UHGV virus genome: UHGV-1377021
Source of the DNA: a virus
DNA: 23,643 nt
Direction: 5' to 3' (one strand)
Below the pieces are notes generated by a model that saw only the letters and a list, made by a program, of their open reading frames with translations, did not search any database and was not told the DNA's origin. This document shows, piece after piece, positions 2,614 through 4,934 of this stretch. Each line of letters starts with the position of its first letter. Within the stretch, counting starts at the first letter, position 1. A program made the position numbers and the translations under genes.

Positions 2614-2798
2614 ACGCCACAATTCAAACGATACCAGAGCTTCTTATCCAGACACGAGGCAATCAGACCGAAGTGGCGAGGATGCTTTCCTGCGCAAGAG
2701 GAACAGTGCTCAAGTACAACCGAGACAGCAAAGGTGAGCGTCACGTAATAGTTAACGGCGTCCTGATGGTCAAACAGGGCAAGAGGGGAAGACGATGA
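2610..2798 (+). CDS. ninH: NinH-like small DNA-binding protein
   Basis: 62 aa, IPELLIQTRGNQTEVARMLSCARGTVLKYNRD...VIVNGVLMV, resembling lambda NinH as remembered; overlapping start/stop with neighbours. Confidence 0.6.
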   Translation: MNATIQTIPELLIQTRGNQTEVARMLSCARGTVLKYNRDSKGERHVIVNGVLMVKQGKRGRR

Positions 2799-3283
2799 GC
2801 ATAAGAGAACTAAACCTCACCAAAGAACAGCACGAGTGGCTGAATGGCTGGCTTGAACTGTGGGGCGCATGGGTTTATTCAGGTCGTCTGGAAAAGCGCA
2901 TGAGCAGCGTAATAGCGAAGTTCATGGAGAGCGTAGAGCCGGGAAGAATTATGACAAGGCCAATGTGTAATGATGATGATGGAATGTTGATTTCTCAGGT
3001 CGTCGATTCCGTCATGTACATTGACAAGAAAGCCTTTGGCATCCTCCTCAGCTACTACGCTCATGGATCTTCCAAGCACGCCATTGCATCTTACTATCAT
3101 CGTGTCGCAAGACCTCGCAAGATGTTATGCCGGGGCGGCGGGCGCATTCAAAAACCATCGCTCGCAACCTGTCGCCGGGAAGTTGACGAAATCCTCAATG
3201 CCTCGTTGTTTATGATTTATCCGGTTCTGGATAGTGCGTTTAAAAACCGGAAACGTGTAGAGAAAATTAAACATGTAGCATAG
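2795..3283 (+). CDS. Q: Late-gene antitermination protein Q (phage 82/21 QuuD type)
   Basis: 162 aa with the WLELWGAWVY...RPMCNDDDGMLISQVV pattern typical of the Q82-type family; last gene before the late promoter and lysis cassette. Confidence 0.75.
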   Translation: MSIRELNLTKEQHEWLNGWLELWGAWVYSGRLEKRMSSVIAKFMESVEPGRIMTRPMCNDDDGMLISQVVDSVMYIDKKAFGILLSYYAHGSSKHAIASYYHRVARPRKMLCRGGGRIQKPSLATCRREVDEILNASLFMIYPVLDSAFKNRKRVEKIKHVA

Positions 3284-3287
3284 AACG

Positions 3288-3325
3288 TGTTGACATCATT
3301 GAGCAAATGAGCAACACTATTCACA
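3288..3325 (+). promoter_or_regulatory. Candidate Q-dependent late promoter (PR'-like) with qut region
   Basis: Exact TTGACA -35 hexamer at 3290-3295 directly after the Q stop; the -10 element is not clean (CACTAT/TATTCA candidates at 19-22 nt spacing). Confidence 0.4.
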
Positions 3326-3331
3326 TAAGCT

Positions 3332-3370
3332 GCCGTTAGTGACTCTTAAGTTGCAACGGTGGCTTTTTTT
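3332..3370 (+). terminator. tR'-like intrinsic terminator just downstream of the late promoter
   Basis: CCGTT(3333-3337)/AACGG(3355-3359) stem with a long loop, followed by GGC and a T7 run (3364-3370). Confidence 0.45.
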
Positions 3371-3448
3371 GTTTGCACAACAGGTAAGAGCATTGAACCC
3401 GCAGACCTCGCGGAATTGGTGAAAGGTGCCGCGCAGTGCTCTTATCGT

Positions 3449-3576
3449 TGTGGTGAAGCTCAATGGCGAGCTAGCAGATAGGCGACAGTGAAAATACTAG
3501 TCATGTAGCTGACCGCCGCGCGTACTGCAATCGGCAGCGCACCGATGGAAGCCGGTTCGATTCCGGCCGCCACAAC
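3449..3576 (+). ncRNA. tRNA-like element (degenerate or interrupted; not a canonical tRNA)
   Basis: Near-consensus T-arm GCCGG-TTCGATT-CCGGC at 3551-3567; 7/7 acceptor pairing between 3449-3455 and 3568-3574; D-arm-like GCTC-AATGGC-GAGC at 3458-3471; anticodon-arm-like stem 3530-3534/3542-3546. But there is about 58 nt extra between D-arm and anticodon arm, no U33, and no CCA. Confidence 0.3.
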
Positions 3577-3585
3577 CCAAACTGA

Positions 3586-3635
3586 GCCGTAGCCACTGGC
3601 TATCCTGAATTCATCAGTGATAGTTACGCTGCGGC
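3586..3635. repeat. 50-nt imperfect palindrome/hairpin centred near a GAATTC site
   Basis: Outer 8-bp stem GCCGTAGC/GCTGCGGC (one G-U), inner 9-bp stem CTATCCTGA/TCAG(T)GATAG with a 1-nt bulge, 5-nt loop ATTCA; no U-tract follows. Confidence 0.5.
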
Positions 3636-3821
3636 CTTCTACACATGACCTTCGTGAAAGCGGTGGCAGGAGGTTGCGCTAACAACCTCATGCCGTTTTG
3701 CCCGTGCATATCGGTCACGAACAAATCTGATTACTAAACACAGTAGCCTGGATTTGTTCTATCAGTAATCGACCTTATTCCTAATTAAATAGAGCAAATC
3801 CCCTCAATGAAGGGGTAGAGC

Positions 3822-4025
3822 ATGTACCGTATGGACAAAATCAGAGAATGGTTCAGTTACAGCTTCGGAGGACTGACTGCGATGGGTGGCATTCTCTCCC
3901 TGAATGACTGGGCTGTCATCATTGGTATTCTTTGTACTGTCGGCACATTTGGCATCAACTGGTACTACAAGCGCAAAGAGCGCGAGGACAGATTGAATGG
4001 CAATGTCACCGGCACTACGAAATAG
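3822..4025 (+). CDS. Holin, small class II/pinholin-like, with a dual-start motif
   Basis: 67 aa beginning M-Y-R-M (two Met separated by a basic residue, as in the lambda S107/S105 dual-start arrangement); two hydrophobic segments, the first Gly-rich ([13 protein letters not shown]), and a charged C-terminus; directly upstream of and overlapping the endolysin. Confidence 0.7.
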
Positions 4026-4500
4026 CGTAATAGCGGCGATAAGTGGCGGGGCTATTGCTATAGCATCTGTGTTAATCACTGGACCAAGTGGTAACGATGG
4101 CCTGGAAGGTGTCAGCTACATACCATACAAAGATATTGTTGGTGTATGGACTGTATGCCACGGACACACCGGAAAAGACATCATGCTCGGTAAAACGTAT
4201 ACCGAAGCAGAATGCAAAGCCCTCCTGAATAAAGACCTTGCCACTGTCGCCAGACAAATTAACCCGTACATCAAAGTCGATATACCGGAAACAACGCGCG
4301 GCGCTCTTTATTCGTTCGTCTATAACGTGGGCGCAGGCAATTTCAGAACATCGACGCTTCTTCGCAAAATCAACCAGGGCGATATCAAGGGCGCATGTGA
4401 TCAGCTACGGCGCTGGACATACGCTGGCGGTAATCAATGGAAAGGACTGATGACTCGCCGTGAGATTGAGCGTGAAGTCTGTTTGTGGGGGAAGCAATGA
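3997..4500 (+). CDS. SAR endolysin (T4-lysozyme-like muramidase with N-terminal signal-anchor-release domain)
   Basis: 167 aa; N-terminal Gly/Ala-rich weakly hydrophobic stretch ([19 protein letters not shown]) followed by a GLEG...YKDIVG...WTVCHGHTG block carrying the E-D-T catalytic arrangement of phage-21-type lysozymes. Confidence 0.85.
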
Positions 4501-4934
4501 GCAGAGTAACCGCGATTATCTCCGCTCTGGTTATCTGCATCATCGTTTGCCTGTCATGGGCTGTTAATCACTACCGTGATAACGCCATCGCCTACAAAGA
4601 GCAGCGCGATAAGGCCGCATCCACAATCGCTGACATGCAGAAGCGTCAGCGTGATGTTGCAGAACTTGACGCCAGATACACAAAGGAGCTTGCTGATGCT
4701 AATGCGACTATCGAAAGTCTCCGTGCTGATGTTTCTGCTGGTCGTAAGCGCCTGCAAGTCTCCGCCACCTGTGCAAAGTCAACGACCGGAGCCAGCGGCA
4801 TGGGCGATGGAGAAAGCCCAAGACTTACAGCAGATGCTGAACTCAATTATTACCGTCTCCGAAGTGGAATCGACAAGATAACCGCGCAGGTTAACTACCT
4901 GCAGGAGTACATCAGGACGCAATGCCTTCGATGA
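4497..4934 (+). CDS. Rz: Rz i-spanin
   Basis: [31 protein letters not shown]... matches lambda Rz from memory: N-terminal TM anchor then coiled-coil-type periplasmic domain. The track ORF starts 4 codons upstream at 4485. Confidence 0.85.
4696..4881 (+). CDS. Rz1: Rz1 o-spanin (lipoprotein) embedded in the +1 frame of Rz
   Basis: [33 protein letters not shown]...: lipoprotein signal with a lipobox Cys and Pro-rich mature region, entirely inside Rz, as in lambda. Confidence 0.75.

Follow-up and report, generated by a model that had tools for sequence, protein, structure and literature searches.

The window analyzed here is a stretch of 23,643 nucleotides of the UHGV virus genome UHGV-1377021, and the element in question lies in the leader between its antiterminator and holin genes. 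The genes around it are all on the + strand: an antiterminator Q gene (2795–3283, Pfam Phage_antitermQ) and, downstream of it, a class II holin of 67 amino acids that starts MYRM (3822–4025, Phage_holin_2_3), a lysozyme gene (3997–4500, Phage_lysozyme) and an Rz gene (4485–4934, Phage_lysis). The leader between the Q-type antiterminator and the holin is 538 nt long (3284–3821). It carries a late terminator of the tR' kind at approximately 3328–3369 and, directly before the ribosome-binding site (RBS) of the holin, an sdi-like stem-loop on the + strand with the arms CCCCT/AGGGG (3800–3815), after which the holin starts with ATG-TAC-CGT-ATG. Between these two features lie the inverted repeats at 3668–3770 that are the subject of this analysis. 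An initial annotation, made from the sequence alone, described them as a hairpin and a pseudoknot-like A-B-A'-B' arrangement in the holin leader, with a suggested role in the translation or timing of the lysis genes. Comparison with related phages indicates instead that the conserved hairpins most likely fold in the RNA of the opposite strand rather than in the leader of the holin mRNA.

Repeats of the holin leader and the block that carries them

All three of the repeats described initially are present at exactly the reported positions, as confirmed both by reading the sequence and by a repeat search. The hairpin has the arms GAGGTTG (3670–3676) and CAACCTC (3683–3689); the pair A:A' consists of GAACAAATC (3719–3727) and GATTTGTTC (3751–3759); and the pair B:B' consists of GATTACT (3729–3735) and AGTAATC (3764–3770). 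They are more than is expected by chance: measured against 2000 dinucleotide-preserving shuffles of the leader 3284–3821, there are six perfect inverted repeats whose arms are 7 nt or longer and whose loop does not exceed 60 nt (1.45 expected, P = 0.005), two interleaved A-B-A'-B' arrangements (0.06 expected, P = 0.005), and one inverted repeat of at least 9 nt (0.09 expected, P = 0.083).

The pairing potential of the region extends beyond what had been noted. The hairpin continues past its 7 bp to arms of 12 nt (3665–3676/3683–3694) with one G×A mismatch, and arm A pairs additionally with 3697–3706. Arm A' has a second partner downstream, in a match of 13 nt (3750–3762/3789–3801) with 12 Watson–Crick pairs and one U·G pair. 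This partner, ATAGAGCAAATCC at 3789–3801, is a third copy that we call A'', and it pairs with GGATTTGTTC in A' (3750–3759); a stretch of 83 nt thus contains the 10-mer GGATTTGTTC or its complement three times.

The repeats belong to a conserved non-coding block of approximately 150 nt in the lambdoid late leader, window 3650–3801, to which we assign no strand. Over approximately 3650–3801 the window is 95–98% identical to lambda, HK022, Sf6, HK75, CUS-3 and BTP1, and the lambda counterpart, with an identity of approximately 96%, is 45,017–45,167, directly upstream of gene S. The block is also carried by about 250 further phage records and by 1108 of 5426 complete E. coli genomes, in none of which it is annotated. 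More divergent versions are found in P22 and ε34 (74–79% identity), in N7-type and in Pseudescherichia-type leaders, and these supply the variation that makes the structures testable by comparison.

Conservation starts abruptly at approximately 3650 and ends within the sdi-like hairpin, at the sdi loop. The modules on the two sides differ between phages: three or more kinds of flank occur upstream, and downstream the block is followed by no fewer than four unrelated holin types, most of which have a dual in-frame start (MKM, MKKM, MKNM and MYRM/MFRM). In N7 and in L323 the block itself contains recombinant joints. The term boundary sequence denotes a non-coding stretch that is conserved at the junction of modules and has non-homologous flanks; this describes the block, and CUS-3 labels the homologous 241 bp “bsq3; boundary sequence”. 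That label concerns the same DNA at the same kind of junction between unrelated genes, but is silent on RNA, strand and structure. The concept of boundary sequences in the mosaic lambdoid phages is said to come from the work of Clark et al. in 2001 on HK620.

The neighboring element at 3800–3815 is a hairpin of the sdi type, being a stem-loop over the Shine–Dalgarno sequence with a dual-start holin next to it, and the structure is kept, in differing sequence, before four holin types. In lambda, sdi lies at nt −21 to −7 and controls access to the Shine–Dalgarno sequence for the first of two starts, and the control elements of S have been mapped to −21 to +47 only (bioRxiv 10.1101/2025.05.14.654169). 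The window has the same layout of a hairpin over the Shine–Dalgarno sequence and two in-frame starts; however, the repeats lie 30–130 nt further upstream than the lambda control region, and the class II holin is unrelated to lambda S. Because the repeats are located 52–152 nt before a dual-start (MYRM) holin with an sdi-like hairpin, the suggested link to lysis control is reasonable and remains plausible; what was not borne out is the assumption that the holin mRNA leader is the strand that folds.

Strand preference of the conserved hairpins

A consensus structure of the − strand was calculated using RNAalifold from 31 representative diverse sequences (alignment A3). It contains exactly two hairpins and no others, which we designate HP-II and HP-III. 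HP-III (3665–3694, − strand) is the hairpin noted initially, with its 12-bp stem (3665–3676/3683–3694) and the loop CGCTAA, which reads UUAGCG on the − strand. HP-II (3697–3725, − strand) pairs 3697–3706 with 3716–3725, includes most of arm A, and is found also in the fold of STnc6010, an antisense transcript of prophage BTP1 that is considered below. For HP-III, 96.8% of the alignment cells are paired on the − strand, with four pairs changed on both sides, as against 88% on the + strand; for HP-II the values are 99.4% and 74%, with many G·U pairs and one double change from UA to CG. The − strand structure as a whole is 90% paired, compared to 40–47% when the partners are slid by one to three columns, and 0 of 500 shuffles match the observed − strand pairing or covariation score.

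The pairings were also assessed on the sense strand, using 18 diverse sequences (alignment A4). Here the 7-bp hairpin is 91% paired, with three pairs changed on both sides, and the 12-bp stem is 88% paired. The hairpin is therefore real, a conserved structure and no chance palindrome, since 3 of its 7 pairs, and 7 of the 12 in the extended stem, are kept through two-sided changes. Its arms read GGAGGTTG/CAACCTCC in lambda, GGGATACTG/CAGTATCCC in the N7 type and GAATCTG/CAGATTC in L187, in each case with compensation. The loop is not invariant: an unbiased scan found the rare variants CGATAA (in BTP1), CCCTAA and CACTAA, and two loci (L247 and L346) in which the loop and the inner stem are inverted in place, giving GGAGGTTG-TTAGCG-CAACCTC. 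Such an inversion would be the expected product of template switching across the palindrome.

The type of mismatch distinguishes the two strands. Among 106 unique sequences, the mismatches in the HP-III hairpin when read on the + strand comprise 109 A×C cells and only 5 G·U cells, and an A×C mismatch on the + strand is a G·U pair when read on the − strand. Correspondingly, 107 cells of the two conserved hairpins are G·U pairs when read on the − strand, while the + strand reading gives hardly any. In unbiased hairpin haplotypes, changes that create A×C on the + strand occur at eight or nine stem positions, and changes that create G·U at two. The structure conservation index (SCI), calculated by RNAalifold from a single alignment read both ways, is higher for the − strand (0.75) than for the + strand (0.52). 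We considered whether a mutational strand bias could produce the asymmetry; this is disfavored because transitions show no such skew outside the helices (G>A 2, C>T 4, T>C 7 and A>G 6), although these numbers are small. The wobble bias, the pairing and the SCI thus all favor the − strand, contrary to the placement of the structure in the sense leader.

A homologue of the antisense transcript STnc6010

STnc6010 is a noncoding RNA (ncRNA) of 320 nt on the − strand of prophage BTP1 in S. Typhimurium D23580 (386,640–386,959; Canals et al., 2019, PMC6333337 S2 Table), where its neighbors are Q at 386,021–386,539 and holin S at 387,004–387,207 (PMC6333337). Start sites in that study were mapped by differential RNA sequencing (dRNA-seq), and according to the authors, sequence analysis was used to check the promoters and terminators (PMC6333337 S2 Table, S1 Text). 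In lysogens under 17 conditions, STnc6010 is expressed at 8–362 transcripts per million, compared to 10–20 for lytic genes (Owen et al., 2020, PMC7067206). The same authors describe the function of the BTP1 ncRNAs as unknown, and the RNAs as not seen earlier in other lambdoid phages (PMC7067206). The published record of STnc6010 gives no structure, conservation or function. In the literature searched we found no mention of it in a main text, and no functional study of STnc6010, of a lambda late-leader antisense RNA or of boundary sequences.

The BTP1 leader is nearly identical to window 3579–3830. Approximately 200 nt at the 5' end of STnc6010 are about 95–97% identical to window 3579–3778, and the homology stops at the BTP1 tRNA genes. 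The 5' end of STnc6010 (386,959) precedes the holin ATG by 45 nt and corresponds to window 3778, equivalent to lambda 45,144, and the whole of the region 3668–3770 therefore lies inside the STnc6010 homologue. The two elements agree in place and orientation, being antisense between Q and the holin; they differ in that STnc6010 runs, in its 3' part, antisense to the genes for tRNA-Thr and tRNA-Asn, whereas the window lacks these genes and has only a tRNA-like fragment at 3520–3578. Its sequence homology and its conserved − strand structure make the element a homologue of STnc6010, which has been annotated but not characterized. Since the wobble and folding bias points to the − strand and a published antisense transcript covers the region, the structures are most likely part of an antisense RNA.

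The homology predicts an antisense start on the − strand at 3778 (the last A of TTAGGA-A), with a −10-like hexamer TATTTAAT at 3791–3784, so that the two together span 3778–3791. The start context is TATTTAAT-TAGGA-A in the window and TATTGAAT-TAGGA-A in BTP1, and its form (an A/T-rich hexamer ending in AAT/ATT, then TAGGA, then A) is kept in most lineages while the surrounding loop varies. When folded from 3778, the − strand RNA is predicted to form three hairpins in succession, of which the second and third are HP-II and HP-III. The first, HP-I (3729–3775, − strand), is a 5'-terminal hairpin on B':B of approximately 14 bp (3762–3775 with 3723–3737), which comes from minimum-free-energy (MFE) folds from the homologous start. 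It is found in lambda-type sequences only, with 74% of cells paired across lineages, and is lost in the P22 type.

Directly after HP-III, an intrinsic terminator on the − strand, here called H0, is present in 104 of 221 related loci, P22 and mEp235 among them. An example is GAAGCCCAGCC-AUAG-UGCUGGG-UUUUCUUUU; on the + strand, the A run precedes the hairpin. H0 has the form of a terminator only when read against the direction of the late genes, and there is covariation in its stem (CCAGC/GCTGG, CCCAGC/GCTGGG and CCCGC/GCGGG). It lies at 866–891 of L004 (P22) and 876–899 of L007 (mEp235), on the − strand in both, and is absent from the window at approximately 3648. H0 would end the antisense RNA at approximately 165 nt, and the P22 version of this RNA has a folding z of −5.7. 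The window, lambda and BTP1 are without H0, apparently through a clean deletion. A further terminator-like signal on the − strand was flagged at the other end of the block, where AUUUG(C/U)UC follows the complement of the sdi hairpin (window 3800–3815; L004 1035–1050). Located just before the antisense start, this signal could halt antisense transcription that leaves the lysis genes.

Our preferred explanation is that the repeats are structural modules of an antisense RNA, in a block that is used on both strands, and that this RNA is probably a cis-acting brake on the lysis genes; we put the probability of this reading at roughly 0.55. It would work as follows. A − strand transcript would start at approximately 3778, run leftward and fold successively into the lineage-specific 5' hairpin (B:B'), the hairpin 3725–3697 that contains arm A, and the hairpin 3694–3665. 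In approximately half of the related phages a rho-independent terminator would come next and give an RNA of about 165 nt, while in the window, lambda and BTP1 the transcript would read on. In the late mRNA, on the + strand, A' would pair with A'' (3789–3801), abutting the sdi-type hairpin that partitions initiation between the two holin starts. The antisense RNA, made in lysogens, would be a perfect complement of more than 100 nt of the late leader, up to approximately 44 nt before the holin start. It could form a duplex with transcripts that have escaped the late terminator, or with the late transcript of an incoming relative that shares the block; an action on incoming relatives is conceivable because the block is common to many otherwise different phages. 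A double-strand-specific RNase might then cut the paired leader, or the leader might refold next to the RBS, around A', A'' and sdi; in either case the holin would be kept off. Later, Q-dependent late transcription would outnumber the antisense RNA and overrun its promoter. The descriptions of the block as antisense RNA and as boundary sequence are compatible.

Several points weigh against this explanation. STnc6010 was detected by RNA-seq and dRNA-seq and is outside the four BTP1 small RNAs (sRNAs) confirmed by northern blot (PMC6333337). It is partly antisense to two abundant tRNAs, so that its read counts could be inflated. The evidence for antisense expression comes from BTP1 only, and not from the window, lambda or E. 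coli. A σ70 consensus scan of 3779–3821 calls no antisense promoter, and the promoter identified by eye, TTCATT-16-TTTAAT, is weak, matching at 8 of 12 positions. The window, lambda and BTP1 are without H0, so that in the window the RNA has no terminator of its own. No Rfam family matches the antisense RNA, and the Hfq RIL-seq (RNA interaction by ligation and sequencing) data for enteropathogenic E. coli (EPEC) E2348/69, which carries the block, have no entry at 2,611,6xx–2,612,0xx among the entries listed. The number of independent substitutions behind the strand assignment is modest, with many close relatives among the sequences: approximately 15–16 wobble-making events fit the − strand, as against 2 that fit the + strand. 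The viable phage mEp235 (L007) has no equivalent of approximately 3702–3773 and has lost A, B, A' and B', keeping HP-III, H0, A'' and sdi; most of the element is therefore dispensable for growth, and its role must be accessory. Finally, what the analysis itself shows are the repeats and their conservation, the covariation, the bias of the wobbles towards one strand and the homology to a mapped transcript; expression from the window itself, the promoter and every functional step, including the regulatory role as a brake, are what we infer.

The proposed action can be compared with that of known antisense RNAs. The lambda RNAs aQ and OOP and STnc6030 of BTP1 are cis-antisense, are made in lysogens and reduce a lytic-pathway transcript, as proposed here, but their loci are different (Q, cII and the tailspike gene, respectively). 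STnc6030 also excludes related phages. A 2025 review gives only OOP and aQ for lambda, and no late-leader antisense RNA. In type I toxin–antitoxin systems, a small antisense RNA (Sok, or OrzO, which pairs with the zorO 5' untranslated region) is directed against the mRNA of a small lethal membrane protein. The mechanism that we propose, in which a constitutive small antisense RNA would act on a leader, is similar; type I toxin genes, however, stand alone, whereas the holin here belongs to a long late operon.

A tentative extension is that lambda (from approximately 45,144 down to 45,031) and about one-fifth of E. coli genomes may carry an unrecognized structured antisense RNA gene, with its own start and in half of the cases a terminator. 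It might act as a safety catch on the holin in lysogens, and possibly in exclusion between phages, at the A/A'/A'' switch beside sdi. The timing of lambda lysis is a textbook example of control after transcription, and its mapped elements end at −21 from the S start. If the extension is true, then the best-studied temperate phage would have an undescribed regulator of its lethal lysis cassette; the same element would be present in approximately 20% of E. coli genomes and many Salmonella prophages; one of the “boundary sequences” invoked for lambdoid mosaicism would have a functional reason; and the class of holin-adjacent prophage sRNAs would extend past PasA and PasC of the Shiga toxin (Stx) type.

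Alternative readings of the repeats

A first alternative places the function in the sense leader, with no pseudoknot. In this reading A' would pair either with A or with A'', taking 2–3 nt of the sdi stem in the latter case, and would tune the stability of sdi and hence the ratio of antiholin to holin. The helix A':A'', designated I1 (3750–3762 with 3789–3801, + strand), was found by the repeat search and in the MFE fold of the + strand. Its 10-bp core is invariant in the 18 diverse relatives, while the loop that it encloses, of 26 nt in the window and 26–32 nt among lineages, exists in at least eight versions. The sole polymorphic pair is U3757·G3794 or U-A, which is a wobble of the + strand type. 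I1 overlaps the sdi-like hairpin, in that the last 2–3 nt of A'' form part of the 5' arm of sdi. Because A'' is upstream of the antisense start, outside the antisense transcript, I1 could act only on the + strand, and the conservation of A'' is not due to the antisense RNA. It is thus plausible, as a model, that I1 is a sense-strand helix that competes with sdi or stacks on it.

The evidence from A:A' itself (3719–3727/3751–3759, strand not assigned) is of a different kind. Its 6-bp core is 100% paired and invariant, and the outer 3 bp are 78% paired; the pair is real, but because the core never varies, the comparison is uninformative about it. Both of its arms are shared with rival partners, HP-II for A and I1 for A', which are equally or better conserved. 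A, A' and A'' are invariant in every lineage even though the loops between them differ, the MFE fold and the centroid of the + strand pick different partners, and the block always stands ahead of dual-start holins of unrelated families, all of which is consistent with a switch in the sense leader. On the other hand, there is no covariation in the three arms, so that the pairing is undemonstrated, mEp235 is viable without A and A', and our literature search found no effect of sequences upstream of −21. We regard a sense switch as possible but less likely than the antisense reading; it can coexist with the antisense RNA.

A second alternative is that the block is purely a recombination linker, whose similarity among phages arises from homologous exchange between mosaic lambdoid genomes and whose repeats have no RNA function. 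The bsq3 label of CUS-3, the differing modules on both sides and the recombinant joints in N7 and L323 are in its favor. However, in versions that are 74–79% identical both hairpins survive by way of compensatory and wobble substitutions, the wobbles are biased in one direction, half of the loci have a dedicated − strand terminator, and a mapped transcript exists. As a full account of the repeats a pure linker is therefore unlikely, while exchange at the block is compatible with a role as RNA.

The antisense RNA might also be a trans-acting prophage sRNA, directed at host mRNAs or sRNAs in the manner of PasA, AgvB and AsxR and not at the lysis leader. Its architecture resembles that of an sRNA: it has an invariant GAACAAAUCC close to the 5' end and two hairpins, and half of the variants carry a terminator. 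It is also expressed in lysogens. There is also a precedent at the same genomic position: in other prophages, PasA and PasC are encoded antisense in the interval that separates the holin from the gene upstream of it (PMC8550237 Table S6; bioRxiv 10.64898/2026.05.13.724894). PasA/PasC (EcOnc51/52) of EPEC and enterohaemorrhagic E. coli occupy the same gap upstream of a holin–lysozyme operon, are likewise antisense, and end in an intrinsic terminator. They differ from the element described here in that they bind Hfq, have mapped trans targets and sit in Stx-type prophages with a different leader. A blastn comparison of the E2348/69 loci with the window leader gave chance matches only, of 8–15 nt (E > 1), and we therefore rejected membership of the PasA/PasC family, limiting the analogy to position and orientation. 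No target has been identified, the antisense RNA resembles no Rfam family, and the entries listed in the EPEC Hfq RIL-seq data do not include it. A trans-acting role appears improbable.

The pseudoknot of the initial annotation, in which the hairpin and the A-B-A'-B' pairing in the sense late mRNA would set holin translation or timing, fares worse. The + strand RNA does fold better than shuffles (z = −3.0 and −2.3), the A:A' core is always paired, HP-III is 88–91% paired on the + strand, the known sdi element is only 40 nt downstream, and N7 has one change from A-T to G-C within B:B'. B:B', however, has only 62% of its cells paired across the 18 relatives. Five of its seven pairs depart by breakage alone, no compensatory change was found, and the pair is destroyed in every non-lambda lineage, being absent from P22-, L032- and L187-type leaders. 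The alignment of relatives' leaders that had been proposed as a check thus found the hairpin kept and B:B' not kept, and had nothing to say on the invariant A:A'. Because B:B' is poorly kept and uncompensated and A:A' shows no covariation at all, the pseudoknot is unsupported. The mismatches in HP-III and HP-II, moreover, break pairing on the + strand and keep it on the − strand, a 9-bp stem would, on geometric grounds, have to be spanned by a loop of 4 nt, and the published control elements of lambda S lie at −21 to +47 only. We consider the pseudoknot quite improbable.

A backup terminator on the + strand, formed by HP-III and the following GUUUUG and stopping Q-unmodified polymerase before the holin, is highly improbable and was rejected: the stem is G+C-rich and is followed by four U in lambda-type sequences, but the terminator scan does not flag it, and P22-, N7- and L187-types keep the hairpin without the U run.

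Some further features of the leader and of the wider search were noted. A small open reading frame from the ATG at 3645 to the TAA at 3737 (30 codons) was considered and taken to be non-coding: an extra G in lambda at 3662 shifts the frame to one of 12 codons, and the other types of upstream flank lack this ATG. In Rfam 15 no curated RNA family matches at its gathering score, and at E ≤ 10 only the tRNA-like fragment and the late terminator are found. The fragment (3520–3578), which lies outside the repeat region, consists of a T-arm and acceptor and scores 20.2 bits with the Rfam tmRNA model, below the gathering score; ARAGORN finds no tRNA or tmRNA gene. BTP1 and the E2348/69 prophage have tRNA-Asn and tRNA-Thr at this place, and because relatives carry these genes there, the fragment looks like a decayed tRNA module. 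In BTP1 (L342; PMC7067206), the 5' end of the sense leader may arise by tRNA processing, immediately to the left of the block.

Genome contigs were also scanned with GGATTTGTTC-N-GARCAAATCC. This is a palindromic pattern, and its hits were mainly in unrelated metagenome-assembled genomes (MAGs), with two useful loci. In Treponema, Kiritimatiellae and other MAG contigs (L130–L209), GGATTTGTTC followed after 18–48 nt by GAACAAATCC recurs several times per genome; this is another palindromic repeat, unrelated to the phage block. Three contigs (L116, L212 and L249) have TTTTTGGAATTTTTTTT repeats joined to lambda sequence that starts within the hairpin loop (GCGCTAACAACC...), and presumably represent the Oxford Nanopore lambda control strand, which they resemble, as a contaminant of public assemblies. 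Just past the late terminator of the window there is an inverted repeat with arms of 11 nt, TAAGAGCATTG (3385–3395) and CAGTGCTCTTA (3434–3444), and lambda has the same repeat.

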